Below, piece by piece: positions 4,858 to 36,184 of a stretch of DNA of 64,000 nucleotides. The translations under genes were made by a program, and so were the position numbers. This DNA is from a bacterium UBP14_UBA6098 (GTDB lineage: Bacteria > UBP14 > UBA6098): the NCBI GenBank assembly GCA_002428525.1, contig DIWU01000032.1, positions 1,269-65,268 of the forward strand, given 5' to 3'. Each line of letters opens with the position of its first letter. The stretch's first letter is position 1. The notes under the pieces were generated by a model that saw nothing but the letters and a program-made list of their open reading frames with translations, was not told the DNA's origin and searched no databases.

Positions 4858-4980
4858 CGCGTGCGGCGTCGGCCCGACCGAAGGTCGGCGCGGGGCGATC
4901 GAGAGGTAATTTCCAACAATAAGCGATCTGCGCCTCGACCGCCCCGCCGGCGTCCGAAGGACGCGCCGACGCCGCACGCG
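4858..4980. other. GC-rich nested inverted-repeat element (16-bp closing stem around two GAA-loop hairpins)
   Basis: CGCGTGCGGCGTCGGC (4858-4873) pairs with GCCGACGCCGCACGCG (4965-4980). Inner hairpins are CCGACC-GAA-GGTCGG (4874-4888) and GCGTCC-GAA-GGACGC (4950-4964). No T-tract follows. Confidence 0.5.
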
Positions 4981-5092
4981 ATCGCCGCAAGCTGTCGAGT
5001 TTATATCCAAAACCGATTTTGCTTGACTTTTTTTTATTAAAGAGTAGTTTTGCTTTCCGAAAAATAACAAATTTATGTTAAGAGAGGTTGAG

Positions 5093-6013
5093 ATGAAACG
5101 CGACTTTTTATCGATCGACGACTTGAATGCTAAGGAGATAAAGGATATCCTCGCCGGCGCGAAGGTTTTGAAGCACATGTCGAGTTGGGGCGACAACAGG
5201 CGTCCTCTCGAGGGGAAATCTGTTGCGCTTATCTTCCGCAAGCCGAGCCTCAGAACACGCGTCAGCTTCGATGTCGGTGTTTCGCAGTTCGGCGGACATC
5301 CGATAGTTATCTCGGACGCCGAGATCGGAATGGGCAAGCGCGAAACGGTGCATGATATTGCGAAGGTTCTTTCGCGTTATGTTTCCATGATCGTGATTCG
5401 CACCTTCGAGCAATCCGAGGTCGAGGAGTTGGCGAAGTATGCCGATGTTCCGGTTATCAACGCCTTAACGAATCTCCTTCATCCTTGCCAGATTATGGGC
5501 GATGCGCTTACAATCATGGAGCACAAGGGTTCTATCGACGGCATGAAGATCGCCTATGTCGGCGACGGCAATAATATTGTAAATAGCTGGTTGAATTTTG
5601 CAAAGAAGATCAAGATCGACCTTCGAATCGGGACCTCGGCCAACACGCATCCGGATACCGCAATCCTTTCGGCGGCGAAGGCGGCGGGTATGAGCCAGAT
5701 CACTCTCACTCACGACCCGATCGAGGCTGTGCGGGATGCCGATGTCGTTTATACAGATGTTTGGGCGAGTATGGGCGAGAAGGAAAGGGCCGCTGAAAAG
5801 GCCGCTCAGCTCGGAAATTTCCAGATTAACAGTGAGCTTATGAAAAACGCGTCACCGAACGCTATCGTGCTCCATTGTCTTCCGGCGGAACGCGGCCGAG
5901 AGATCACAGACGAGGTTATCGACGGACCGCAAAGCGTCGTCTTCGACGAGGCAGAAAACAGGCTTCATATACAGAAGGCGATTATGCAGTTCTTGACTAC
6001 CGGATTAGTCTAA
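5093..6013 (+). CDS. argF: ornithine carbamoyltransferase
   Basis: It has the SLRTR carbamoyl-phosphate motif, HPCQ and HCLPA motifs. The start was set to ATG 5093, which follows AGAGAGG. Confidence 0.9.
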   Translation: MKRDFLSIDDLNAKEIKDILAGAKVLKHMSSWGDNRRPLEGKSVALIFRKPSLRTRVSFDVGVSQFGGHPIVISDAEIGMGKRETVHDIAKVLSRYVSMIVIRTFEQSEVEELAKYADVPVINALTNLLHPCQIMGDALTIMEHKGSIDGMKIAYVGDGNNIVNSWLNFAKKIKIDLRIGTSANTHPDTAILSAAKAAGMSQITLTHDPIEAVRDADVVYTDVWASMGEKERAAEKAAQLGNFQINSELMKNASPNAIVLHCLPAERGREITDEVIDGPQSVVFDEAENRLHIQKAIMQFLTTGLV

Positions 6014-6032: not shown

Positions 6033-7574
6033 TTAGGAGCCTCGCCAGTATTTTCTGTCGAGGCTTCTGTATTGTATGGCCTCGGAAACATGGTGCGGTG
6101 CGATCTCGGGCGAATCGTCGAGGTCGGCGATTGTTCGCGAAAGCTTTAGGATTCGGTCGTAAGCCCTCGCCGAGAGGCCGAGCTTTGTGATAGCCATTCG
6201 AATAAGGGCCTCGGAGGGCTCGTCGAGTTGGCAAAAAGTCCGAATGAGCTTTGTTCCCATATGCGCGTTGCAGAAGACCTTCTCGATGCCCCTGAATCTT
6301 TCGCTTTGGTGCCTTCGACTTCGTGAAACACGCTCGCGGATTTTGTCCGAATGGTCGCCGGAACTCGGGCCGGAGAGCTCGTGATACTTCACAGCCGGAA
6401 CCTCGATATGAATATCTATTCGATCTAAAAGCGGGCCTGATATCCTGCCGACATAGTTTTGAATCTGCGCCGGAGTGCAGGTGCATTCGTGGTAGGGATC
6501 GCCGAAATAGCCGCACGGACATGGGTTCATCGCCGCGACGAGTGTGAACTGCGAGGGAAAGGTCAGAGTCACCGCCGCTCTTCCGATCGTCACATGGCCG
6601 TCCTCCATGGGCTGGCGCATCACCTCGAGGACATTCTTCTTGAATTCGGGAAGCTCGTCGAGAAAGAGCACGCCGTGATGGGCAAGCGAGACCTCCCCCG
6701 GCCTCGGATAGACCCCGCCGCCGATGAGGCCGGCGTCCGAGATAGTGTGGTGCGGCGCTCTGAAGGGTCGTGTCGCGATGAGGGCCGTTTCACCGGGGAG
6801 TGTGCCGGCAACCGAGTGAATCTTTGTCGTCTCGAGCGATTCCTCGATAGAAAGAGGCGGGAGTATCGATGGGAAGCGCCTCGCGAGCATGGTCTTGCCC
6901 GACCCGGGGGGACCGATCATGAGGACATTATGCCCGCCCGCCGCGGCGACCTCGAGCGCGCGTTTGACATGATCTTGGCCGCGCACATCGCTAAAATCCG
7001 CCGAATATATACTCGCCGCTTGAAAAACATCCTGCACGCTCGCCTTGAAGGGATCGATGTCGAGATTCCCGCATATGAAATCGACGGCTTCCTTCAAGTT
7101 CGATACCGGATACACCGGCGCTCCCTGCGCGATAGCCGCTTCACGGGCGTTCGCCATCGGGACTATCATTCCGGCCGCTTTTTCCTTTTTTGCCAAAATC
7201 GAGATCGGAAGCATACCCCTAACCGGCGCGACCGAGCCGTCGAGCCCAAGCTCACCCGCAATATAATAGCCCTCGATATTCTGTAGCGGGATTATCCCGA
7301 TAGCCCCCAAAAGCCCTAAAGCTATCGGAAGATCGAAGGCGCTACCCTCTTTCTTGATATCCGCAGGGGCTAAATTGAGTGTGATCTTCCCCTGCGGAAA
7401 CGGTAGGCCGGCGTTCTTTATAGCGCTCATCACGCGCTCGCGGCTCTCCCTGACAGCGTTGTCCGGAAGGCCGACTACATTGAACGACGGCAACTTAGCC
7501 GAGACATCGGTCTCGACATCGACACGATATGCGTCGATTCCGAAAAGTGCGGCTGTGATAATTCGAGAAAACAT
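6033..7574 (-). CDS. comM: YifB/ComM-family Mg-chelatase-like AAA+ ATPase
   Basis: The N-terminal Lon-like domain is followed by Walker A GPPGSGKT and a C-terminal domain, about 510 aa. The gene is convergent with argF. Confidence 0.85.
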   Translation of the reverse strand: MFSRIITAALFGIDAYRVDVETDVSAKLPSFNVVGLPDNAVRESRERVMSAIKNAGLPFPQGKITLNLAPADIKKEGSAFDLPIALGLLGAIGIIPLQNIEGYYIAGELGLDGSVAPVRGMLPISILAKKEKAAGMIVPMANAREAAIAQGAPVYPVSNLKEAVDFICGNLDIDPFKASVQDVFQAASIYSADFSDVRGQDHVKRALEVAAAGGHNVLMIGPPGSGKTMLARRFPSILPPLSIEESLETTKIHSVAGTLPGETALIATRPFRAPHHTISDAGLIGGGVYPRPGEVSLAHHGVLFLDELPEFKKNVLEVMRQPMEDGHVTIGRAAVTLTFPSQFTLVAAMNPCPCGYFGDPYHECTCTPAQIQNYVGRISGPLLDRIDIHIEVPAVKYHELSGPSSGDHSDKIRERVSRSRRHQSERFRGIEKVFCNAHMGTKLIRTFCQLDEPSEALIRMAITKLGLSARAYDRILKLSRTIADLDDSPEIAPHHVSEAIQYRSLDRKYWRGS

Positions 7575-7624: not shown

Positions 7625-7984
7625 TTAACAGGTTGCTTTAAAGCCCTCGTGAAAAAAGACAAAACCTTGCGGAAAAGTTCCATCAAACGAAAGAACGGAG
7701 AAAACCTCCGGCGGCACACCTTCGTGCGATAGCTCATCAATATTTTCAAAGCCGAATTGTCGATAGTATTGTGGGTGCCCGACAACACGGCCATTCACCT
7801 CTGCAACCAATGAAACTGTAAGCGCATTTGCGGATCTAAGTGCATCGACGATATAATGTTCCGTATGATTGCTGATCTCCATTTTTTCAAATGCCACACA
7901 AGTAACTTCCGAGATGGCGGGATGATCATCGCTCGTCTCGTCTCTGATCAATAACTCAAGCTTCGCCAAACTAATTGCCTCCAA
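7625..7984 (-). CDS. GNAT-like (YhbS-type) acetyltransferase remnant, apparently lacking the acetyl-CoA-binding core
   Basis: The N-terminal (SLVAEVNGRVVGH) and C-terminal (YYRQFGF) blocks resemble YhbS-type GNATs. The protein is only 119 aa and has no Q/RxxGxG/A motif. Confidence 0.45.
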   Translation of the reverse strand: MEAISLAKLELLIRDETSDDHPAISEVTCVAFEKMEISNHTEHYIVDALRSANALTVSLVAEVNGRVVGHPQYYRQFGFENIDELSHEGVPPEVFSVLSFDGTFPQGFVFFHEGFKATC

Positions 7985-8116
7985 TTGGCATTCTCAAACT
8001 ATTCAGTCAGTATTTGAATATACTCTCGATTTATAGCCCTGTAAAGCGCTTTCTGTAAATTCCGTATTCTTTTTGTCTCCATAAGATCCCGCAAACTGAC
8101 ACCCGCGCTCACAAAA

Positions 8117-8236
8117 GGGGGCTTCGGGCGAGCATGCTCGCACCGAAGCGGTCGGCGAACAATCTCGCAAGAACTGAAATCGCCGAGCCGACCGCTTCGG
8201 GCTGATCTGCGTATTCGCAGATCAGCCGAAGCCCCC
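8117..8236. other. highly structured GC-rich intergenic element (nested stems)
   Basis: The outer stem GGGGGCTTCGG (8117-8127) pairs with CCGAAGCCCCC (8226-8236). Inside are the palindrome GCGAGCATGCTCGC (8128-8141), a 14-bp stem (8143-8156 with 8187-8200) and a perfect 11-bp hairpin GCTGATCTGCG-TATT-CGCAGATCAGC (8201-8226). Confidence 0.55.
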
Positions 8237-8288
8237 GAGGCCTCTGCCGGCGCCGGATTTTCAAAATAGGTCGATTAGGTTAAATGAT

Positions 8289-10502
8289 TTATTCGGATGG
8301 TTTTAGGGCGAATTTATTGCCCTGTTCGAAGGAAAGGCGTATTCGCGAGTCGAGGGCGGTGCACCTATGGCTCGATTCTGATCGACCGATGGCGATAGAC
8401 AATGCCGAGGGCTGGCCGACTAATACACAAAGGCGTTTTGCGCGGGTGATCGCGGTATATAAAAGATTTCTATTTAAAAGGATGAAATGCTCTTTGTAAA
8501 CCGGCATCACAACGCAGGGGACCTCTCCCCCTTGCGACTTATGGGCGGTGATCGCATAGGCCAAAACGATATCCTCGGCCGAGTCGCGGTCATATGTCAC
8601 AAGGCGATTGAAATCGACTGTTAAAGAATCCTTTGTGATGGATTCTACGAAACCTATATCGCCGTTGAAAACATTAAGGTCGTAATTATTGCGGGTTTGC
8701 ATCACTTTGTCGCCCTGAAAAAACCTTGAATCGGATCGCTTATCGGCGAAATTTAGCTCTCGGCGTAGCGATTCGTTGAGGGCGTTGGCTCCGCAGATGC
8801 CCTTATACATTGGGACAATGACCTGAATATCGCGTATCGGGTCCAGACCGTATGTTTTCGGCAACCGCCTCGACACTAAGTCAACTATCGTTTTCAGGCC
8901 TGCTTCTCGGTCTTCTTCATGGATGAAAAAGAAGTCGCCGGAGGGGTCGTTGCGAAGATCGGGCATTCTGCCATTGATAATATTGTAAGATTCATGTATA
9001 ATTCTGCTTTTCTCGGCTTGTCGGTGTATCGATTCGAGCCTGACAACCGGAACTTTACCGCTCGAGATGATATCCGACAGAACCTGTCCCGGACCGACAC
9101 TCGGGAGCTGATCGGCGTCGCCGACGACGATAACGCGCGTTCCGGGCTTCAAGGCCGTAAGTAACGAAGAAAGAAGCTCGATATCGACCATGCTCGCTTC
9201 GTCGAGGATCAGCATTCCGGTGTCGAGTGTTCGGCCTTGGCCGTATTTGAATCCTTGTCCGGGCGTCCATTCTAAAAGCCTGTGAATCGTGAAAGCCTCG
9301 TGGTCGGTGGTCTGCGAAAGCCTATTCGCGGCCCTTCCGGTCGGGGCGCATAGTAGCGGCTGAAAAGAGGCTTTTCGCGCCAACGAGACTATTGCTTCGA
9401 TAACAGTAGTTTTGCCGGTTCCGGGGCCGCCGGTTATCACTGAAACACAATTTTCGCATAAACCCGACTCCACCGCGGCCCTTTGCTCTCGTGTAAAGAC
9501 AATCCCCCTTTCGCGTTCGAAGGCCTCAAGGCGCTTTTCCACTTCCTCCCTCGGCAACGACCTCGACGGGTTGCGCGCCAATAATGCGAGGGCTTCGGCG
9601 GATTGGATCTCTGCACGATAAAGCGATGGCGGATAGACCCTGTCCTGATCGGCGATCAGCTTTCCCGAAAGCGCTAACACCTCTATAGATTTAGCGATCG
9701 GGGCGCGGTCGAGGCCGAGCAAGCTCGATGCGTTGTCGGCGAGCGCATAACTCGGAACAAAGCAATGGCCGTCCTCGGTGGCTTTTTTTAGGGTATATAG
9801 AACACCGGCGCGGATTCTCGAGGGCGAGTCCTTCGGCGTGTTCATCTTCTTCGCGATTTTATCGGCGATCTGAAAGCCGATTCCCTCCATCTCGTCCGCG
9901 AGCCTGAAGGGATCGCGCGAAAGGATATCGAGCGCCGCGCCCTTATATTTGCTGTAAATCTTTCGAACCTTTGCCGGGCCTATGCCCTCACCGAGCAGTC
10001 TTATCGAAAGCTCGCGAATGATCTGCGCCTCTCGGTCCTCCGCGGTAATCGCCTTACATATAGATTCGGCCTTTTTCTTGCCGATTCCCTCGACCTCGAG
10101 AAGCCTCTCCGGATGTTCGCGAATTATCTCGAGGAGGTTTTCGCCGAAATGGGACACCAATCTCGCGGCAAACTTCGGCCCTATCCCCTCGATCAGGTCG
10201 CTTGCGAGGTATTTTTTCAAGGACTCCAGACTATCCGGCTCGGCAACCGTGAAACTATCGACAACAAACCTGAAGCCCCAACCCTCCTTCATTTCCCATT
10301 TGCCCGAAAGCAAGAGCCGTTCGCCCGGAGTTCTTCTGCCGAGCGAACCGACAGCATCCAAAACTCCGCCTTTGCCGGTCTTCAGCTTGATCACGGAATA
10401 ACCGTTCTCTTCGTTGTAGTAAACAACACGCTCGACCGACCCGGATATCTTTTCAGCCCCGGTTTTCCCGCCATCGTTTTTCATGATTGAAAAATACTGC
10501 AT
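8289..10502 (-). CDS. recD2: RecD2-type ATP-dependent DNA helicase (SF1B, RecD-like)
   Basis: It has an N-terminal OB/SH3-like region, HhH motifs, Walker A GGPGTGKTT and a C-terminal UvrD-like part. The start was placed at MQYF (10502), so the tool ORF is over-extended. Confidence 0.85.
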   Translation of the reverse strand: MQYFSIMKNDGGKTGAEKISGSVERVVYYNEENGYSVIKLKTGKGGVLDAVGSLGRRTPGERLLLSGKWEMKEGWGFRFVVDSFTVAEPDSLESLKKYLASDLIEGIGPKFAARLVSHFGENLLEIIREHPERLLEVEGIGKKKAESICKAITAEDREAQIIRELSIRLLGEGIGPAKVRKIYSKYKGAALDILSRDPFRLADEMEGIGFQIADKIAKKMNTPKDSPSRIRAGVLYTLKKATEDGHCFVPSYALADNASSLLGLDRAPIAKSIEVLALSGKLIADQDRVYPPSLYRAEIQSAEALALLARNPSRSLPREEVEKRLEAFERERGIVFTREQRAAVESGLCENCVSVITGGPGTGKTTVIEAIVSLARKASFQPLLCAPTGRAANRLSQTTDHEAFTIHRLLEWTPGQGFKYGQGRTLDTGMLILDEASMVDIELLSSLLTALKPGTRVIVVGDADQLPSVGPGQVLSDIISSGKVPVVRLESIHRQAEKSRIIHESYNIINGRMPDLRNDPSGDFFFIHEEDREAGLKTIVDLVSRRLPKTYGLDPIRDIQVIVPMYKGICGANALNESLRRELNFADKRSDSRFFQGDKVMQTRNNYDLNVFNGDIGFVESITKDSLTVDFNRLVTYDRDSAEDIVLAYAITAHKSQGGEVPCVVMPVYKEHFILLNRNLLYTAITRAKRLCVLVGQPSALSIAIGRSESSHRCTALDSRIRLSFEQGNKFALKPSE

Positions 10503-16241: not shown

Positions 16242-17690
16242 ATGTCCCTCAAGCGCGATCTGATACGCGATACGGCCCTTTACGGCCTCGGCGATATTCT
16301 CACAAAGGCTATCGCTTTCCTGCTTATACCCCTCTATACGAACTCCCTCGTGCCGGAGGAATACGGTATCTACCAGTTGGTCGTCCTGTATGTCACAGTC
16401 GCGATGGTTTTCTCTCTGAGCGGTATGAATGTCGCATTGTTCAAGCATTTTGTCGTCACACCGGAGGAGGGGAAGCGGCGAGAGCTTTTTACGATTACTG
16501 TTTTGTGGGTGTTTTTAAGCTCGGCGCTGATAATCGGTCTTTCGATGCTTCTTTCCGGGCCGCTTTCGGAGCTTGTGGCCGGCAATACCGGCCGAAGAGA
16601 TATCGTCGGGCTCGCGGCGCTCAGTTCCGGCCTCGACACGCTTTTACTCGTGCTCCTTTTGATCTTTCGCATGGAAAAACGCCCGATCGGCTATATAACC
16701 TTTTCCCTGATAAAGATTGTCGTTATTTTGGCCGGCAATTATTTTCTGGTTTGGAAGATGGGCATGGGCGTCGTCGGGATATTGATCGCGGGGATAATCG
16801 CGAATCTTGTTATCCTGATTCCGCTTTTGATCAAGGTCGGTAACTACTTCATCTGGCCGGTTTCGAGAAAGCTATTCATTGAGCTCCTTGTATGGGGAAT
16901 CCCGTTCATCCCTTCATCGCTGTCTTCGGTGATCTTGACGCTTTCCGACAGGCTCGTTCTTCGTTATATGGCGGGTTTCGACTCGGCGGGGATTTATTCG
17001 GTGGGCTATAAGATCGGCGGTGCGGTTTTACTTCTATATACAGCTTTCAGGTTCGCGTGGGGGCCGTATATGTTCGAGCTTGCGAAGGATATCGAAACCG
17101 CCCGAAAGACCTACCCGAGGGTTTTAAATGTGCTTATTGCACTGCTCGGGTTGGCGGCGCTCGGGCTGGTCGGCTTTTCGAGCGAGATCTTCCGGTTTTT
17201 CGTTGGAGAGCTTTATTATTCGGCGCGTGCGGTGCTGATCCCAATATCGCTGTCCGTTCTCTTCGACGCCTCCTCGCTGTTCTTCGGCGCGGCACTCCAG
17301 ACGCGCGATAGGACAATCTATATCCCCGTGGTCACCGGTCTTGCGGCTGTCTCGAATATCCTGCTGAATATACTGCTCATCCCGAAATACGGTTTCATGG
17401 GCGCGGCTTGGGCGACACTCGCTTCCTATATCGCCTTGGCCTATATGAACTTCCGTGTTGCGAACCCCTTCATGCCGGTGAAATACGATTGGCTTAAGCT
17501 GACCTCGATAGTCGCCTCGGTGTCCGGCGGGATGGCGCTTATGTGGTTCGTGGAATCCTTTGTTTTAAGGATAGTATTATTTATTGGAGTCAGTGTGATA
17601 GTTTTCTTTATCTCCTGTGAAAACCCTAAAAACTTTGTTAATAGTATTTACCGCTCGTCGAATATGTATCATCGGCGATGCTCTAAATAA
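16242..17690 (+). CDS. Wzx-like polysaccharide flippase (MOP/PST family), core-GC copy
   Basis: The protein is 482 aa with about 12-14 predicted TM helices and a typical PST-family N-terminus. Confidence 0.7.
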   Translation: MSLKRDLIRDTALYGLGDILTKAIAFLLIPLYTNSLVPEEYGIYQLVVLYVTVAMVFSLSGMNVALFKHFVVTPEEGKRRELFTITVLWVFLSSALIIGLSMLLSGPLSELVAGNTGRRDIVGLAALSSGLDTLLLVLLLIFRMEKRPIGYITFSLIKIVVILAGNYFLVWKMGMGVVGILIAGIIANLVILIPLLIKVGNYFIWPVSRKLFIELLVWGIPFIPSSLSSVILTLSDRLVLRYMAGFDSAGIYSVGYKIGGAVLLLYTAFRFAWGPYMFELAKDIETARKTYPRVLNVLIALLGLAALGLVGFSSEIFRFFVGELYYSARAVLIPISLSVLFDASSLFFGAALQTRDRTIYIPVVTGLAAVSNILLNILLIPKYGFMGAAWATLASYIALAYMNFRVANPFMPVKYDWLKLTSIVASVSGGMALMWFVESFVLRIVLFIGVSVIVFFISCENPKNFVNSIYRSSNMYHRRCSK

Positions 17691-17725
17691 CAATATTCAG
17701 ACTCAAATACAGCAGACTTGAACAA

Positions 17726-19222
17726 ATGATGAATGACAACAACTACATTCAACAAAATGGGCAATTATCCCGATCTGTAGTTTCTGGTGGTATATGGATT
17801 ACATTATCTAAGATATTACAACATAGTTTAAATTTCATTAGGACAATAACACTTGCTCGTTTGCTCTCTCCAGACAACTTCGGCCTTTTCGGCATAGCAA
17901 TGCTCGCGCTTACAGCAATAGATAAATTTTCTTTCACTGGTTTCGATCAAGCACTGATTCAGAAAAGAGAGAATATTGAGCCTTATCTCGATTCTGCATG
18001 GACTATTCAGGTTATTCGCGGTTTAATCTTAGGATTATTATTGTTTTGCACAGCACCTCTTGTCGCGAAATTCTTCCATGAACCGCAGGTTACATTACTA
18101 TTAAAAGTTCTGGGCTTTTCAATTTTCATTGGAGGTTTCAGAAACATAGGTATCGTGTTTTTCCATAAGAATATCCAGTTCAATAGAATGTTTATATATG
18201 AATTAAGTGGTACAATAACTGATTTTGGAGTCGCGCTAACTGCCGCCATTATATTGCGTAACGCATGGGCGCTAGTCTTTGGTTTCACGGCAAGGAATAT
18301 TGTCCAAACAATTGTTTCGTATGTCATCCATCAATATAAACCGCGCTTTAAAATTAATTGGAAGCATACAAAGGACCTCTTGAGTTTCGGCCAATGGATT
18401 TGGGGTAGCACGATACTGATATTTCTGCTAACTCAAGGAGACGATATTTTAGTTGGAAAGATACTTGGAACAACAGCGTTAGGGTTTTACCAAATGGGAT
18501 ATAAAATCTCGAACCTTCCAGCTACAGAGATTACTCATGCCCTTTCGCAAGTGATTTTCCCAGCCTATTCAAGACTGCAGGACAATATTCCAAAGCTTAG
18601 AGCCGCTTTCTTGAGAGTTTTCCAAATGATGACATTTATCACCTTTCCAATTGCGATACTGATATTCGTCCTCGCGCCAGATTTTACTATTGTTTTTCTC
18701 GGCGAAAAATGGATGCCTATGGTGCCGGTGATGAAAACACTATGCTATTTTGCTGTTATTAGGACGATTAATTCTGTGTTTTCAGCTGTGTTAACTGCAT
18801 TGGGCAAGCCGCGTATTTCAACGATAGGATCGTTTTTCCAATTGATATTATTCGTAATAATTGTGTATCCATTGATAATAAACTTCGGACTAGTTGGTGT
18901 AGCTTATGCCACTATTATCCCGAATGCTTTCTTCCTGATATATATCGGCATCAGGCTACTGAAAGAAATTGACACACAGTTTTCAAAGCTGTTGAGTGTT
19001 ATCCTTCCATCGATTGCGGGATGTCTATCAACTTATTTATCTGTAACCTTTGTGAATAATACGTTTTCTTTTAATGCCTCTGTGATCTCCATTATTTCAC
19101 TCGCTATTTTAGGGGGTGGAGTATATATTGTTGTTGTTTATTTGTCGGATATTCTAACAAAGGGAAGTCTTACTAATAGTGTTAAACAGATTCTTTTATA
19201 TAAACGAGCGGATTTATTATGA
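17726..19222 (+). CDS. Wzx-like polysaccharide flippase (MOP/PST family), low-GC copy
   Basis: The protein is 498 aa, multi-TM and AT-rich. Its stop overlaps the next start (ATGA). Confidence 0.7.
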   Translation: MMNDNNYIQQNGQLSRSVVSGGIWITLSKILQHSLNFIRTITLARLLSPDNFGLFGIAMLALTAIDKFSFTGFDQALIQKRENIEPYLDSAWTIQVIRGLILGLLLFCTAPLVAKFFHEPQVTLLLKVLGFSIFIGGFRNIGIVFFHKNIQFNRMFIYELSGTITDFGVALTAAIILRNAWALVFGFTARNIVQTIVSYVIHQYKPRFKINWKHTKDLLSFGQWIWGSTILIFLLTQGDDILVGKILGTTALGFYQMGYKISNLPATEITHALSQVIFPAYSRLQDNIPKLRAAFLRVFQMMTFITFPIAILIFVLAPDFTIVFLGEKWMPMVPVMKTLCYFAVIRTINSVFSAVLTALGKPRISTIGSFFQLILFVIIVYPLIINFGLVGVAYATIIPNAFFLIYIGIRLLKEIDTQFSKLLSVILPSIAGCLSTYLSVTFVNNTFSFNASVISIISLAILGGGVYIVVVYLSDILTKGSLTNSVKQILLYKRADLL

Positions 19223-19902
19223 GCGATGAACTAAATAAATTCAACGAAGCATATACCGGTAACAGGCCGGATGTCCAACAATTGATTCCCGATAATGTTC
19301 AGAGGGTTCTGGATTGTGGTTGTAGTGTAGGCGCTCTCGGGGAAGAGATCGCAAAAAGGCCTAATAAACCCGAGGTCTGCGGGATAGAATTAGACGAACA
19401 AACTGCACAAATCGCTAAGAGTAAGTTAGATCGTGTCATTATCGGAAATCTCGACACGATCGATTTCGCGGAACACTTCCAAAAGGGATACTTCGATTGT
19501 ATAATATTCTCCGATGTGCTCGAACATACACAAGACCCATGGGGTATTCTAAAGAATGCAATGCCTTTTCTAAACAACGATGGTTTCGTGATAATCAGTA
19601 TTCCAAATATTCGTCACTACACCACGATATGCAATCTAATCTTTCGCGATTATTGGCCATATAGAGAAAGAGGTCTTCACGATAAAACACACCTAAGGTT
19701 CTTCACGCTTAAAAGTATTAAAGAACTATGTGAAAATGCCGGCCTCCAAATCCAAAGATTGGAACGCAATTATCGGATCTACGAAAGGCCACATTATAGG
19801 AACAGGTTCGCGAAATACTTAGCCATCCCGTTCTTGCGCGGTTTTCTTGTTTTCCAGTATCTCATTGTCGCAAAAAAAAGAGGGCCGCATGGCGGGGAAT
19901 AG
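19219..19902 (+). CDS. class I SAM-dependent methyltransferase
   Basis: Motif I is VLDCGCSVG and motif II is DCIIFSDVLEH. Confidence 0.75.
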   Translation: MSDELNKFNEAYTGNRPDVQQLIPDNVQRVLDCGCSVGALGEEIAKRPNKPEVCGIELDEQTAQIAKSKLDRVIIGNLDTIDFAEHFQKGYFDCIIFSDVLEHTQDPWGILKNAMPFLNNDGFVIISIPNIRHYTTICNLIFRDYWPYRERGLHDKTHLRFFTLKSIKELCENAGLQIQRLERNYRIYERPHYRNRFAKYLAIPFLRGFLVFQYLIVAKKRGPHGGE

Positions 19903-20956
19903 AAAAACTACAATGAGACTTAAAATATCCTCATACTTGAGGAGAATAGCATCTAAAGAAAAAAATTCATTTTCGGAGAAGCTCGCACTTTTTGCACGAG
20001 CTATTTATTTGAAGCTAAAAAGTGTGTATAAAGCTATCATGCTGTCAATGTCGAAAAGTAACTCAAAAATGGTCTCAAGGCTTTACCTGAAGCAAAGAAG
20101 TTTCATGAGAGCCAAGCTTGAAGGGCGCTATTCTTTCGTCACAATCGACGAACTCGTTCTGTGGACGATGGATTGGATTAAAACCAACAAAATCGACCAC
20201 GACATTATTGTCGGAATACCGCGGAGCGGATTATTAGTCGCTAATATACTGGCATTAAAACTTGGGAAACCTTTATCTACGCCGGAGCTTTTCGTGCAAG
20301 GTTCCCTCTGGAATAGCAAGTATATTGAATTAACCGAAAACATTAAGAGTGTTCTATTGGTCGATGACACAGTTAGTTCGGGTAAAACTCTGGATGATAA
20401 TCTGCAAGTTATACTCCCCTATTGCGAAAAACGAGGAATTTCGATTACCAAAGCGGCTCTTATCGTTACCGACGAAGCGCTTTCTTCAGTGGATGCTTTC
20501 TATAAGATCCTTCCTCAACCGAGGCTATTCGAATGGAACTTGATGCACTCCAAAAAGGGGATTATTTGTTCGGATATGGACGGCGTTATATGTGAAAATT
20601 GTCCTCCCGGCGTGGATGCCGATGAAGACCGGTATCTCGAGTGGCTCGATAATGCAAAGCCATATATGATACCTGCTTTTGAAATCGATGTTATTGTTTC
20701 GGGGCGTCTGGAAAAGTATCGGGAGCAAACAGAACATTGGCTCAAAAAATATAAAGTCCGATATAAAGAGCTTTGCCTTTGGGATTTGGAATCCAAAGAA
20801 CTAAGATTAGGCAATTATGTTAAACATAAAATCGATGTAATCTTGAAGACAAAGCCGGATATGGTATTCGAAAGCGAGCATAACCAAGCTGAAGAGATAT
20901 GGAAAGCTACTCATGTCACTACAATATGCACTGACGATATGATTATCTTCTCATAA
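19889..20956 (+). CDS. fusion of an N-terminal type I phosphoribosyltransferase domain and a C-terminal HAD-like phosphatase domain
   Basis: The PRPP-binding motif is VLLVDDTVSSGKTL (PRTase). HAD motif I is SDMDGV, with a downstream S/T and Lys. The start is uncertain (19889 or 19913) and the tool ORF is over-extended. Confidence 0.6.
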   Translation: MAGNRKTTMRLKISSYLRRIASKEKNSFSEKLALFARAIYLKLKSVYKAIMLSMSKSNSKMVSRLYLKQRSFMRAKLEGRYSFVTIDELVLWTMDWIKTNKIDHDIIVGIPRSGLLVANILALKLGKPLSTPELFVQGSLWNSKYIELTENIKSVLLVDDTVSSGKTLDDNLQVILPYCEKRGISITKAALIVTDEALSSVDAFYKILPQPRLFEWNLMHSKKGIICSDMDGVICENCPPGVDADEDRYLEWLDNAKPYMIPAFEIDVIVSGRLEKYREQTEHWLKKYKVRYKELCLWDLESKELRLGNYVKHKIDVILKTKPDMVFESEHNQAEEIWKATHVTTICTDDMIIFS

Positions 20957-21171
20957 TACATTCAAAGAAGAGGATATATTGCAAATTCGTCTGACAAGCT
21001 TGATAATCCATGGGTTAATAATCGACAAAGAACACTTCGAGAAATAGAGTGAGTATTCTTTGAGAATCTTCAGAAACATAAATAAACTTGGCCAAAAACC
21101 CCATAATCAGCTTAAGTTCTGTAGATATCCATACGACATCTCTTCCATAATCAAAGAGGTGTATATTTGAT

Positions 21172-22293
21172 ATGAAGATACTCTTTACCACAGGAAGGAT
21201 ACATCAAATCGGAGGCGGTGCTGAAAGATCGGCGACGACTCTCATAAGAAAACTATCTGAAAAGCATCATGTATGTGTGTTCAATATAGTATTTGAACCA
21301 CAGCCTGAAAAGAATCCAGGGCTTATAGGAAGCAACATCGAGATAATCGACTGGAATTTCCCCATAAAGACAAAGAAAACTCTTAGAATGCCATATCACG
21401 CCAGATTACTCTCCTGCGATATTCAAGCACAGAGGGAACTTAACAAGATAGCGAGAAACTTCCAGCCGGAAATTGTAATAGCTCAGAAACCTCCTGTGGT
21501 ATATGAAGATCCTATTCCGAGCAATAAAGCACCAATCATCACATTTGTTAGAGATACGGAGTATTTAGACCCATTCAACATAGAACATAAGTGTTTTATT
21601 CATTACAACACCCTATTTATGAAATTAAGGCAAAAAAGGATGCTAAAATTATTGAAAAAAAGTAACTTGCTTATTGTCGCAAGTGATTTTATGCGGGAGA
21701 AGCTCAATGGATTCGGCTTGTCCGCTGAGGTCGTTCCACCCTTTATTGAATTTGAAAAATATGCCTCTAACCCTGCGGGTGATAGAGATTCCATTACAAT
21801 GATAGCCGCAAATCTTGCAAAACATAAAGGGGTAGATATCTTTTTGCGTATTGCTGAGAAGTGTCCCGATTTGAAGTTTCTGTTGGTAGGGCGTTTGCCA
21901 GAAGAGCATGGAGATTTGCCTTCCAATGTTGTCCATTTGAGATGGACAGACGATATCAAGTCGATACTTGCGAAAACGATGCTTCTTCTTGTTCCGTCCC
22001 GCTGGGAAGAACCTTTTGGTAGATTGCCGGTAGAGGCGGGAGTTAACGGCATTCCCTCTATTGCAAGCAACAGAGGAGGGCTGGTCGAAGCCGTTGGAGA
22101 AGGAGGTATATTGATTCAAAATTACGAGGATATCGACCTTTGGGTTGAGGCAATTACAAGTGTTCTCAATAATTCTGCTATATATAACTCTCTGTCAAAA
22201 AACGCTATAGAGAATGCTAATCGTTTTGAATTTTGCTATTCTTATGCTAAATTTACATCTTTGGTAAAAGAGTATTTTGGGATTGAGCTGTGA
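21172..22293 (+). CDS. GT4-family glycosyltransferase (GT-B, retaining)
   Basis: The EX7E motif is EPFGRLPVEAGVNGIPSIAS. The gene is AT-rich. Confidence 0.8.
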   Translation: MKILFTTGRIHQIGGGAERSATTLIRKLSEKHHVCVFNIVFEPQPEKNPGLIGSNIEIIDWNFPIKTKKTLRMPYHARLLSCDIQAQRELNKIARNFQPEIVIAQKPPVVYEDPIPSNKAPIITFVRDTEYLDPFNIEHKCFIHYNTLFMKLRQKRMLKLLKKSNLLIVASDFMREKLNGFGLSAEVVPPFIEFEKYASNPAGDRDSITMIAANLAKHKGVDIFLRIAEKCPDLKFLLVGRLPEEHGDLPSNVVHLRWTDDIKSILAKTMLLLVPSRWEEPFGRLPVEAGVNGIPSIASNRGGLVEAVGEGGILIQNYEDIDLWVEAITSVLNNSAIYNSLSKNAIENANRFEFCYSYAKFTSLVKEYFGIEL

Positions 22294-22384
22294 AATCGGC
22301 CGCAGTTTATTCCCTTTGGTTTTTGTCGTTTATTAAGTCCATTAAAACAGTAATGAATACATCTTGTATTTCAAGGCGGAGTTC

Positions 22385-23494
22385 ATGAGAATAGCAATCG
22401 ACATTTCTACATTGTGTAGATCGCGGACTGGCGTAGCACTATTCACATATTATACATTGCGTGAGCTTACACTTATTGATAATTCCAATACGTACTTTCT
22501 CTATGTTAATAAGGCCGTTTCCCTCGATTTCCCTCTGCCGCCGAACTTCTTCATCCGCCCGACGCAGATCCCCTTGCCGCAGTTCCAGCTGTGGTTTCAC
22601 ATCGGCCTGCCGATGTTTTTGCGAAGTGATAAAATCGACATCTTCCACGGGACGAATTTCCTCATCCCGCCTTTCCCCGGGTGCAAGACGGTCTCGACGG
22701 TTCACGACCTTTCGAGCCTTGTTATGCCATCACAACATAAGACTTTTCATCGAATCTCTCACGGCCTTTTCCTCAAAAACTCTATGCGCAGAGCGGATGC
22801 GATTATCGCAGTCAGCGAGTTCACGCGGAGCGAGATTTCCCGCCTCTTTCCCGAAATGTCTGATAAGACTGTCGTTATTCACGAGGCAGTATCGCCGGAA
22901 TTTCGGGCAATAGAAGATGTCGCCCTATTGCGCAATATCAGCGAAAAACACGGCCTCCCCGAACGCTTCATTCTCTTCGTCGGCACGCTGGAGCCGAGGA
23001 AAAACATCGAGGGCCTCATGCGAGCGTTCGCTGGAATCAAGGGCCAAATTCCCCATAAACTCGTTATCGTCGGCGGAAGGGGTTGGAAGTTCTCCGGAAT
23101 ATTCGATCTGGTGAAAAGGCTCGATATCGAGGATGATATAATTTTCACCGATTATGTCCTCGCAGGGGATCTCCCGGTGATATACAACCTCGCTGATATT
23201 TTCTGCTATCCATCTTTTTACGAGGGCTTCGGACTGCCGGTGCTCGAGGCGATGGCCTGTGGAACTCCGGTGTTGACCTCTAATGTCAGCTCCTTGCCGG
23301 AGGTCGCCGGGAATGCGGCCCTACTATTCGACCCCCGTTCACCGGAGGATATCGCGGAGAGGATAATTCAGCTGGCCAATAACGAGACCCTCCGCGCGGA
23401 GCTTTCCAAAGCGGGCCTTCGACGCGCGTCCGAATTCTCTTGGGCGGATACCGCGAAAAAAACACTCGAGACCTACCGCCGCGCCCTCGAATAA
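22385..23494 (+). CDS. GT4-family glycosyltransferase
   Basis: EGFGLPVLEAMACGTPVLTS is present. The start is ATG 22385 after AAGGCGGAG. The first ~40 codons are AT-rich and the rest is GC-rich. Confidence 0.8.
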   Translation: MRIAIDISTLCRSRTGVALFTYYTLRELTLIDNSNTYFLYVNKAVSLDFPLPPNFFIRPTQIPLPQFQLWFHIGLPMFLRSDKIDIFHGTNFLIPPFPGCKTVSTVHDLSSLVMPSQHKTFHRISHGLFLKNSMRRADAIIAVSEFTRSEISRLFPEMSDKTVVIHEAVSPEFRAIEDVALLRNISEKHGLPERFILFVGTLEPRKNIEGLMRAFAGIKGQIPHKLVIVGGRGWKFSGIFDLVKRLDIEDDIIFTDYVLAGDLPVIYNLADIFCYPSFYEGFGLPVLEAMACGTPVLTSNVSSLPEVAGNAALLFDPRSPEDIAERIIQLANNETLRAELSKAGLRRASEFSWADTAKKTLETYRRALE

Positions 23495-23576
23495 AGACCC
23501 TCTTTTCCCACTTGTTAATAAAGCCGAATTTTATATATTACTATAGAAACTTTCTATCGAGCTATTTGGAGGAACG

Positions 23577-33790: not shown

Positions 33791-35173
33791 ATGAAAAATA
33801 CAAATCCCCTTCTCGTTCCGGAACTTCGCGAACTGCTCGCGACGAAGGACGGCAAAACAATCCGCGATCTCTGCGAGACAGGCCATCCGGCTAATGTCGC
33901 GGATCTGATCTCCCCGCTCGAGCCTAAAGAGGTTTGGGCGATCCTCGAGTATTTGAACTCAGAGCTTCGAGCCGAGATTTTCCGGCATTTAGACGAGGAT
34001 GTTCAAATCGAAATAATGGAGGATCTCCCCCGAAAGGAGGTTGCCCATATACTCGCCGAGATGCACCCCGACGACAGAGCCGACCTTTTCAAACAGCTTC
34101 CCGAAAGCCTTCAGGAATCGGTCCTTCCAGCCATGGCACAAGCCGAACGCGAGGATATTCGCAGGCTGATCTCCTTCCGTGAAGGAACCGCGGGGGCCGT
34201 GATGACCTCCGATTACGCCGCTCTTCCTCCGCAACTCACTGCCGCGCAAGCGATAGACAGGCTTCGAGAGGTCGCACCCGACAAAGAAACGATCTACTAT
34301 GCTTATGTAGTCGATGACGAGCGCAAATTGCTCGGTTATGTTTCCTTGAAAGACTTGATCATCGCGCGGAGGGATGCGAGAGTCGAGGCGATTATGCAAA
34401 CCGAAGCAGTTTACTGCCGTGTTGACGACGACCAAGAGGACGCCGCGAGGAAGATCCAAAAATACGACCTTTTGGCACTGCCGGTCCTCAACGGCGGCGA
34501 CGCGCTCGTCGGCATCATCACTCATGACGACGCCCTCGATATCATCACTCAAGAGCATACCGAGGATATGGAGAAATTCATGGCGATCGCGGGGAGCCAC
34601 GAGGATTCGGTTTATATTAAAACCTCGGCTTGGAGGCATTTCAAGAACCGCGCTCCGTGGGTCGTGCTCCTCGCTATCCTCGGACTTTTATCGGGGTTTA
34701 TCGTGCAGTCGTTCGAGGGCCTTCTTTTTCAGTTTGCGATACTCCTCACATTCATGCCGATGCTCGCCGCTACCGGCGGTAACACCGGTAGCCAAGCCGC
34801 TTCCCTCGTTGTGCGAGCCCTCGCACTCCGCGAAATCCACCCGAGGGATATCCTCGGGATATTAACTAAGGAATTCCAAGTCTCACTGATGCTCGCTATA
34901 TTGCTCGGTGTAATTGCCTTCGCCAGAGTGATGATCTTCGAAGGCAACGCCAATACCCCCGGAAACTCACTCCTAACAGTGGGTTTAGCGATATCTATCG
35001 CCCTCGGGCTTCAAGTTATAACCTCGACTCTCATCGGAGCGCTTCTTCCACTCGGAGCCGCAAAACTCAAACTCGACCCCGCGGTGGTTGCAAGCCCGGC
35101 ACTTACAACCATCGTCGATATTACAGGCCTCCTCATCTTCTTCCTCACAGCGAAAACAATGCTCAGTATATAA
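33791..35173 (+). CDS. mgtE: magnesium transporter MgtE
   Basis: It has the MgtE N domain, tandem CBS domains and a C-terminal 5-TM domain with PMLAATGGNTGSQA. Confidence 0.9.
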   Translation: MKNTNPLLVPELRELLATKDGKTIRDLCETGHPANVADLISPLEPKEVWAILEYLNSELRAEIFRHLDEDVQIEIMEDLPRKEVAHILAEMHPDDRADLFKQLPESLQESVLPAMAQAEREDIRRLISFREGTAGAVMTSDYAALPPQLTAAQAIDRLREVAPDKETIYYAYVVDDERKLLGYVSLKDLIIARRDARVEAIMQTEAVYCRVDDDQEDAARKIQKYDLLALPVLNGGDALVGIITHDDALDIITQEHTEDMEKFMAIAGSHEDSVYIKTSAWRHFKNRAPWVVLLAILGLLSGFIVQSFEGLLFQFAILLTFMPMLAATGGNTGSQAASLVVRALALREIHPRDILGILTKEFQVSLMLAILLGVIAFARVMIFEGNANTPGNSLLTVGLAISIALGLQVITSTLIGALLPLGAAKLKLDPAVVASPALTTIVDITGLLIFFLTAKTMLSI

Positions 35174-35434
35174 ACTTCAGCCCCTTCGTTCAGGGGCGTC
35201 GGGATTTCGGCGGCCTCCGGAAAGCTCGCTTTCCTCTGGCCGTCGAAATCGCCGTCGAGCCGGAGCACGATCGCGCCCATAACTCCTCTATCGTCCCGGC
35301 CCGACGGCCCGCGCATGCGCGACCGACGCCCCGAAGCGCGGAACATGATCTGTTCAAACCACTAATCTCTTGGGCGATGAACATTTGTGGAGGTCCGAAG
35401 CGGAATTTGAAAATCTATTATTAATAATAATGGC

Positions 35435-35462
35435 TTGACAATACCGTTTATCGACTTATATT
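35435..35462 (+). promoter_or_regulatory. near-consensus sigma70 promoter TTGACA-16-TATATT for cmk-rpsA
   Basis: TTGACA is at 35435-35440, a 16-nt spacer follows, and TATATT is at 35457-35462. Confidence 0.6.
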
Positions 35463-35509
35463 TCACCGATTATTGTAAAATTTGGAGAGGACTCCAAAGG
35501 GGTATTGAT

Positions 35510-36184
35510 TTGTCTGGAAAGAAGATAAGAATTGCAATCGACGGACCTGCAGGTTCAGGGAAATCCACAATAGCGAGGCTTTTAGCCGAACGCCTTGGCT
35601 ACACCTATCTCGACACGGGTGCGATGTATCGCGCCCTGACACTGATCGCGATCGAGGAGGGCATCGATCCCGCGGACGGCGAAGCGCTTGCCGAAAGGTT
35701 GCATTCGATGGAGATACGCCTTGAGCCGGGAAGAACGTTTATCGGCTACGACGATGTGTCCGAGGCGATTCGCACACCTCGGGTCGATGCATTGGTCTCG
35801 CAGGTTTGCGCTCATCCGGCGGTTCGGCGCGAGATGGTTCGGCGACAACGCGAAGGGGCGCAAATAAATTCTATTATCATGGAGGGCCGCGATATAGGCA
35901 CTGTAGTTCTCCCAGATGCGGAAATCAAGCTTTTTCTGACAGCGACTTCCCTTTCGAGGGCCAAACGCAGGGCAAAACAACTCGAGCAAGCCGGGATCGA
36001 TTTCGATTTAGAGGCGCTCGAAAGCGACATAATCCGCCGAGACAGGATGGACTCCACTCGCGCGGACAGCCCCCTTCGCAAGGCCGAGGACGCGATCGAG
36101 ATCGACAATACCGACGAAACACTAATCGAATCGGTAGATCATATCGAACGAATTGTCCGTAACTACTTGGAAGATAATAACTAA
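35510..36184 (+). CDS. cmk: cytidylate kinase
   Basis: IRIAIDGPAGSGKST is present. The start was set to the in-frame TTG at 35510 after AAAGGGG, and the tool start at 35435 coincides with the -35 box. Confidence 0.85.
   Translation: MSGKKIRIAIDGPAGSGKSTIARLLAERLGYTYLDTGAMYRALTLIAIEEGIDPADGEALAERLHSMEIRLEPGRTFIGYDDVSEAIRTPRVDALVSQVCAHPAVRREMVRRQREGAQINSIIMEGRDIGTVVLPDAEIKLFLTATSLSRAKRRAKQLEQAGIDFDLEALESDIIRRDRMDSTRADSPLRKAEDAIEIDNTDETLIESVDHIERIVRNYLEDNN

Follow-up and report, generated by a model that had tools for sequence, protein, structure and literature searches.

A probable lineage-specific repeat with a four-way-junction fold behind recD2 and other genes of a Zixibacteria-like bacterium

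Small structured repeats influence mRNA stability, operon boundaries and genome rearrangement, and, to our knowledge, nearly all catalogues of them concern cultured Proteobacteria and Firmicutes. REP elements occur at high copy number (tens to hundreds per genome) and are associated with the RAYT (Y1) transposase; in E. coli, their role at mRNA 3′ ends is established. Examples of structured MITEs are Correia (Neisseria), ERIC, RUP and BOX (pneumococcus) and bcr1 (Bacillus cereus group). An attC site lies at the 3′ end of a gene cassette; the core sites RYYYAAC and GTTRRRY mark the two ends of its imperfect palindrome. The unit of a REP is one imperfect palindrome of 20–40 bp that ends on one side in an unpaired tag, GTAG or CGTC, and REPs are thought to act in RNA as 3′-end stabilisers or terminators (PMC3733652). 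Besides these tagged superfamilies, REPs form composites such as BIMEs and REPIN doublets. In CGTC REPs, the stem is 8–9 bp long and starts with A/T, the loop has 4–5 nt and the tail reads CCA (Di Nocera et al. 2013, PMC3733652). In mitochondria, the GC clusters of yeast and the repetitive hairpin-forming elements of sponges are GC-rich self-complementary islands in AT-richer intergenic DNA (PMC2800124).

The element considered here, element A, occupies positions 8117–8236 (minus strand) of the 64-kb stretch of DNA analysed (hereafter, the window) and lies behind recD2. We read it, with a probability of roughly 0.6, as a copy of a lineage-specific REP/BIME- or MITE-like 3′-UTR repeat that probably acts as an mRNA 3′-end structure. 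A preliminary description had offered a REP/BIME-like repeat as one of several options; the finding that A belongs to a dispersed family, whose members have their outer-stem motif and their architecture in common, now favours this option, although the definition of a REP unit does not describe these elements. The family comes from an uncultured Zixibacteria-like lineage of methanogenic hydrocarbon-degrading cultures and was previously uncatalogued. In the literature covered by our incomplete search, elements of this kind were not described for the lineage, and this is weak evidence of novelty.

The structured element behind recD2

Element A begins 53 nt past the recD2 stop codon, on the same strand, and by its sequence context is located in the predicted recD2 3′ untranslated region. 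The called recD2 gene (8289–10502, minus strand) encodes 737 aa within an ORF that extends to 10649 (786 aa), and four Pfam domains (HHH_RecD2, AAA_30, SH3_13 and OB_YrrC) confirm the identity previously given to it. Downstream of A lies a hypothetical ORF of 114 aa (7625–7969, minus strand), which had been labelled a 'GNAT remnant'. This label is unsupported, since the ORF has no Pfam match even at E ≤ 10. Two further ORFs that mechanically overlap A (8003–8170 and 8109–8264, minus strand) gave no Pfam match. A sigma-70-like promoter match (TTTACA, 17 nt, TATATT; a consensus match only) is found at 8017–8045 on the minus strand, between A and the 114-aa ORF. On the sense strand, the A outer stem is followed directly by a UUUU run (8113–8116, minus strand), which is absent after the other four members of the family described below. 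A terminator scan makes no call at A, and ordinary compact hairpin-plus-U terminators occur elsewhere in the genome.

The ViennaRNA minimum-free-energy structure of the A region is a four-way junction: its outer stem, of 11 bp, encloses three hairpins, and no more than two bases at the junction are left unpaired. All four stems that the preliminary description had reported at 8117–8236 are present as it gave them, and an inverted-repeat search found arms of 14, 12 and 11 bp that are 100% complementary. In the outer stem, GGGGGCTTCGG (8117–8127) pairs with CCGAAGCCCCC (8226–8236) over 11 bp; in the sense RNA, the 5′ arm is GGGGGCUUCGG (8226–8236, minus strand), which has one mismatch to the family motif GGGGCGTCGG, and the 3′ arm is CCGAAGCCCCC (8117–8127, minus strand). 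Hairpin 1, an 11-bp hairpin with a TATT loop spanning 8201–8226, reads CUGAUCUGCG-AAUA-CGCAGAUCAG in the sense RNA (8202–8225, minus strand). Hairpin 2 (8143–8200, minus strand) has a perfect 14-bp stem, formed by 8143–8156 with 8187–8200, and an AU-richer 30-nt loop that gains extra G-U pairing on the sense strand only. Hairpin 3 (8128–8141, minus strand) is the palindrome GCGAGCATGCTCGC, which reads GCGAG-CAUG-CUCGC in sense. As RNA, A folds at −82.9 kcal/mol on the plus strand (z = −7.6) and at −91.5 kcal/mol on the minus strand (z = −7.8), and 0 of 200 dinucleotide shuffles folded as well on either strand. With DNA parameters, the z-score is −7.15.

Some further features were noted in and around A. 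Two loop-less palindromes, GAGGCCTC and CCGGCGCCGG, occupy window positions 8237–8256, between the recD2 stop codon and A. In both A and element C (see below), hairpin 3 is a full palindrome centred on GCATGC. The hairpin 2 loops of A (window 8160–8180) and of its counterpart in a relative (L022:12255–12265) have the octamer UCUUGCGA in common on the sense strand and are otherwise unrelated; by our rough estimate, the chance of such a match is about 1%, and the octamer is absent from the other three copies.

Copies of the fold and their covariation

By sequence, A is single-copy in the 64-kb window (exact and three-mismatch searches with parts of A), but by structure there are three copies in the window and two more in relatives. 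When the window was folded in sliding 140-nt segments, the three most stable folds were A, B and C, and they are all built alike: the outer stem encloses three hairpins, and hardly any base at the junction is unpaired. Element B (4858–4980, plus strand) has a 16-bp outer stem and three hairpins, and lies 13 nt past the purC stop codon and 95 nt before argF. Element C (35193–35332, plus strand), with the outer stem GGGGCGUCGG/CCGACGCCCC and three hairpins, lies 20 nt past the mgtE stop codon and 102 nt before cmk. In the stability ranking of these folds, B and C are first and third.

A structure-aware scan of 509 kb (the window and 40 loci of other bacteria) looked for outer stems of at least 8 bp that close at least three hairpins at a tight junction. 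Below −77 kcal/mol it returned only A, B, C and a fourth element, L022:12197–12320, the rest being weak folds in coding DNA. This fourth element (outer stem GGGCGCGUCGA/UCGACGCGCCC) lies 16 nt past recD2 in GCA_023145965.1 and has the same helix order as A, namely the outer stem, a 12-bp hairpin, a long hairpin with an A-rich loop and a small GCGAG/CUCGC hairpin. The CUGCG/CGCAG stem core of A hairpin 1 is also found in the L022 element, the hairpin 3 stem is identical in the two, and C has CGCG-CAUG-CGCG at the same place.

In a pairwise alignment of A and the L022 element, compensatory changes on both sides were seen in 13 of the 40 pairs and one-sided changes in a single pair (1/40). Overall, 96% of the cells were paired, compared to about 42% in a control where the 3′ partner was slid by 1–3 columns. 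Because MAFFT aligned A, L022, B and C in a way that was inconsistent with the structure, the model was built from A and L022 and the rest were aligned by Infernal. This first covariance model, with 39 pairs, matched the whole of A on the minus strand at 128 bits and scored B at 57 and 51 bits and C at 38 and 30 bits on the two strands, the next best match in 217 kb being at 16.7 bits (E = 0.4). Applied to two further loci, it found a fifth member, L055:802–1009 (47 bits, E = 7e-9). The L055 element (minus strand, 208 nt) has the outer stem GGGGGCGUCGUU/AACGACGCCCCC, three hairpins and a fold z-score of −9.35, and lies 81 nt past the stop codon of a metalloenzyme gene. Position 840, called as the start of the downstream nucleoside deoxyribosyltransferase-like gene, falls within this copy, and this start is probably miscalled.

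A second covariance model, built from all hits, was searched over 575 kb in 45 loci of many bacteria and found only the A, B, C, L022 and L055 elements. In the model-guided alignment of the hits, which is fitted to the model and into which three elements entered on both strands, 96% of the cells pair and both-side changes are found in 26 of the 39 pairs. The outer stem is conserved in sequence, with six of its ten pairs invariant in this alignment, and each of the five copies carries the motif GGGGGCGTCG/CGACGCCCCC with zero to two mismatches. Compared to GGGGCGTCGG, the outer stems of A, B and C differ at no more than one position. Motif pairs in the loci L034–L036 were set aside as chance matches in GC-rich coding DNA, as was the one match of a motif scan of viral contigs, which lies within a high-GC coding region (z = −2.1). 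A blastn search against plasmids gave no match.

We also compared the helix lengths of the five copies. The outer stem varies from 10 to 16 bp and hairpin 1 from 6 to 13 bp, and their sum in the sense fold is 21, 22, 23, 23 and 22 bp in A, B, C, L022 and L055, respectively, as narrow a summed range being reached in 6 of 120 permutations. With five copies, this near-constant length of about 22 bp is only suggestive. It corresponds to two helical turns and comes close to the size of RNase III substrates.

In summary, it is highly probable that a repeat family with a four-way-junction fold exists, and as far as seen, it is limited to three related Zixibacteria-like genomes. The copies seen are three in about 83 kb of the genome that holds A, B and C, one in about 30 kb of the L022 genome and one in 15 kb of L055; no further copy was found in about 19 kb of new flanking sequence.

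Position, strand and synteny of the copies

Each of the five copies follows a stop codon; four are flanked by co-directional genes and one by convergent genes, with none between divergent genes, and those with a co-directional next gene are nearer the upstream stop than the downstream start. Since they lie behind stop codons, the copies would be part of the upstream gene's mRNA, forming its 3′ end. The copies have 60–70% GC and are surrounded by more AT-rich intergenic DNA; the overall GC content of the L022 relative is 45%. No target-site duplications were found in the flanks of the five copies, and there was no transposase among the genes checked (Pfam, precomputed gene calls) in the approximately 83 kb examined.

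We then compared the folds of the two strands, taking the strand of the upstream gene as sense. As the core stems are perfect Watson-Crick duplexes, both strands fold. For A, the sense and antisense folds have −86.2 and −78.2 kcal/mol with 5 and 0 G-U pairs; for the L022 element, −77.3 and −64.8 kcal/mol with 5 and 0; and for the L055 element, −128.1 and −108.4 kcal/mol with 6 and 1. The sense strand is thus 8–20 kcal/mol more stable in these three. B (−84.6 and −88.7 kcal/mol, 2 and 4 G-U pairs) and C (−87.4 and −88.7 kcal/mol, 1 and 2 G-U pairs) are neutral. The greater sense-strand stability in three of the five copies, together with the position behind stop codons, favours a 3′-UTR role, although a DNA-level constraint is still compatible with the same folds.

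In the GTDB species representatives, no match to the RecD2 of this genome exceeds 43% identity, and the best named RpsA matches are from candidate division Zixibacteria. The same strain was assembled from several metagenomes of methanogenic hydrocarbon-degrading cultures; A is identical in all of them and hence gives no information on variation. Protein-guided scans of genome and metagenome contigs for the recD2 locus returned distant relatives only (38–48% identity), without the element, and closer relatives were located through exact-protein look-ups. In GCA_023145965.1, RecD2 is 61% and RpsA 85% identical, and the next gene after recD2 and the L022 element is a convergent purC. In a relative with a 66% identical RecD2, just a simple GC hairpin follows recD2, and relatives with 51–56% identical RecD2 have no element after recD2.

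In the window, B and A bound a block made of argF (5075–6013, plus strand), comM (6033–7574, minus strand) and the 114-aa ORF (7625–7969, minus strand). This block is absent in GCA_023145965.1, where, in the interval L022:12181–12339, recD2 and purC converge on one element. The elements may mark or mediate a rearrangement. Around C, the L055 contig is otherwise syntenic with 35–46 kb of the window, so that the L055 copy is not at the position of C: it lies about 2 kb from the cmk–rpsA block, and C lies directly before cmk. No orthologue of C was found before cmk in either L054 or L055. In the window, cmk (35435–36184) and rpsA (36207–38420) are separate genes 22 nt apart; in GCA_023145965.1 (L054:5696–8393), they are called as one 899-aa fusion with Cytidylate_kin and S1 domains.

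MgtE (window 33791–35173) is 69–73% identical to proteins named from Thermodesulfobacteriota, Syntrophorhabdus, Fermentibacter and Acidobacteriota, compared to RecD2, which drops to about 44% identity beyond the close lineage. Such identity across unrelated phyla suggests that mgtE, with C at its 3′ end, moves horizontally. The window also has a low-GC island (18000–23500; 0.39–0.40 against about 0.54 elsewhere) that overlaps glycosyltransferase genes and starts within the second of two Polysacc_synt (flippase-like) genes (16242–19222), which is typical of a variable surface-polysaccharide locus. A tRNA gene is found at 98–169 on the minus strand (Rfam, 74 bits), and the window apparently starts inside a second tRNA-like sequence (GAGGATTCGAACCTCC at 1–16).

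Readings of the element and comparison with known systems

The 3′-UTR repeat reading can be put as follows. The family would consist of GC-rich extragenic palindromic elements of 120–210 nt, each predicted to form a tight four-way junction, in which a conserved outer stem of 10–16 bp (approximately the motif given above) closes three hairpins whose sequences vary while self-complementarity is kept. Copies, placed a few to some tens of bases past the stop codons of unrelated housekeeping genes, may have spread as a small non-autonomous repeat, like REP/BIME elements or MITEs. In a transcript, the stable structure could block 3′-to-5′ exonucleases and/or help to end the transcription unit. The fold, the family, its conserved outer stem, the covariation, the location behind genes and the G-U bias towards the sense strand in three of the five copies are observed; the transcription of the copies, their mobility and a stabilising or terminating role are inferred. 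The promoter-like match that follows A supports the end of a transcription unit there. On the other side, B and C lack a sense-strand advantage, the perfect Watson-Crick core stems fit a DNA-level constraint equally well, and the internal sequences are too diverged for a recent amplification. Also against this reading stand the lack of target-site duplications, the lack of a transposase among the genes checked, the restriction of a U-run to A in a genome with ordinary terminators and the small number of copies seen (three in about 83 kb).

Such a DNA-level constraint is central to a different reading, in which the elements are selfish or recombinational and the palindromes matter as single-stranded DNA or cruciforms, with any effect in RNA being incidental. 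A transposase or recombinase might recognise the conserved 10-bp termini, or intrastrand template switching might keep the palindromes perfect. This would fit the perfect core stems on both strands, the DNA fold of A, the equal folding of B and C on either strand, the loop-less palindromes that adjoin A and a pattern of conserved termini with variable interiors, as in transposon ends. The positions of copies differ among syntenic relatives (L055 compared to C), and the argF–comM–ORF block bounded by B and A is missing in a relative with a single element. However, the 5–6 G-U pairs found (almost) only in the sense strand of three of the five copies, with their gain of 8–20 kcal/mol, are unpredicted by a constraint acting on DNA only; there are neither target-site duplications nor a transposase or recombinase gene among the genes checked nearby, and the A and L022 copies have been kept at one site across the divergence to 61% RecD2 identity. 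We consider this reading rather unlikely. Another proposal is a new kind of structured element with the four-way junction itself as the functional unit, to which the conserved 10-bp closing stem, the coaxial helix of outer stem and hairpin 1 with its near-constant 22 bp or so (21–23 bp) and the location at the borders of the argF–comM–ORF block point. It would fit a dedicated protein partner, which could be a junction-specific recombinase or transposase that moves elements, or gene blocks between them, or else a double-strand-specific RNase for which the helix would be a ruler setting mRNA 3′ ends; this appears improbable to us.

At the level of RNA, A could be an intrinsic terminator dedicated to recD2, unusually branched and built from the outer stem and the UUUU run, with B and C serving purC and mgtE in a similar way. 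The distance of A from the recD2 stop codon, the U-run that abuts its outer stem, the promoter-like match for the next ORF after A and the gene-end location of all copies are as expected from such a function. The terminator scan nevertheless passed over A in a genome that has ordinary compact terminators elsewhere, the stem at the U-run is long-range and closes 98 nt instead of forming a compact hairpin, and a common outer-stem sequence would be unexpected for independent terminators. Since a U-run is present at A only, and with just four U, canonical intrinsic termination is not a property of the family; we doubt this reading strongly. The preliminary description had also considered an attenuator and a free-standing structured RNA, and the intergenic location and the complex multi-stem structure would suit a small RNA gene, or an attenuator or riboswitch acting in cis as the leader of the next gene. 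Neither is supported by the present results. The genes downstream of the copies are unrelated (the 114-aa ORF, argF, cmk and the deoxyribosyltransferase gene) and one copy faces the convergent purC, which argues against a leader or riboswitch; moreover, copies are nearer the upstream stop than the downstream start, and the promoter-like match comes after A, between it and the next ORF, and not before. As for ligand binding or an RNA gene, nearly every base at the junction is paired, internal loops that might bind a ligand are missing from the stems, no single-stranded motif is common to all five copies and no Rfam family comes near threshold. We regard this group of readings as very improbable. 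Lastly, an incidental, unconstrained palindrome that belongs to no family, which had been allowed for in case A proved to be single-copy, unconserved and without covariation, could appeal to the single copy by exact or near-exact sequence and to the identity of A across same-strain assemblies, which leaves within-strain variation uninformative. The fold z-score of about −7.7 speaks against it, and it is already refuted by the relative that has an A-like copy at this site, with 13 compensatory pairs, and by covariance models that recover five members and nothing else in 575 kb.

If the copies of the favoured 3′-UTR repeat are transcribed, they would represent a natural, ready-made set of very stable 3′-UTR modules, and if they are mobile, a type of repeat that lacks the features typical of REPs or MITEs. 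As the covariance model separates the copies cleanly from the background, genome annotation could mask them, avoiding spurious ORFs such as the gene start called inside the L055 copy.

Several described systems can be set apart from the family. At gathering level, Rfam 15 has the tRNA at 98–169 as its sole hit in the whole window, and in a permissive Rfam search of A, B and C (E ≤ 10), the hits stayed far below their thresholds, with 17.8 bits (threshold 72), 33 bits (threshold 168) and 15.5 bits (threshold 70). An integron attC site was rejected, as the ends of A (GGGGGCTTCGG and CCGAAGCCCCC) are without the GTTRRRY core and no integrase was found among the nearby genes checked; CGTC-REP, tRNA-like and riboswitch readings were likewise considered and rejected. 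With mitochondrial GC clusters, the elements have in common that they are scattered, structurally constrained and presumed mobile, which is an analogy only, since those are organellar, of other sequences and with simpler folds. They resemble intrinsic terminators as a GC-rich structure closing a transcription unit, followed at A by UUUU, but they are branched, with a long-range closing stem of conserved sequence, and four of the five copies have no U-tract.

The likeness to MITEs lies in a length of about 100–200 bp, conserved terminal inverted repeats, intergenic location, strong predicted RNA folds and, presumably here, co-transcription with neighbouring genes. Unlike MITEs, which are alike over their full length and have target-site duplications, the present copies have only about 10 conserved terminal bp and no duplications; no parent insertion sequence was found for them, and their interiors align by structure only. 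Compared to REPs, the present unit is far from a single palindrome, with 120–208 nt, four helices, the CGTC within the paired outer stem and no CCA tail, and its halves are not inverted copies of each other, save loosely in B, with interiors that are unconserved in sequence. Nevertheless, the outer-stem motif contains CGTC, as in the CGTC REPs, and, like REP/BIME elements, the copies are GC-rich, extragenic and dispersed, lie mostly downstream of genes (co-directional or convergent), lack target-site duplications, have a presumed function at mRNA 3′ ends and are capable of larger composite folds.
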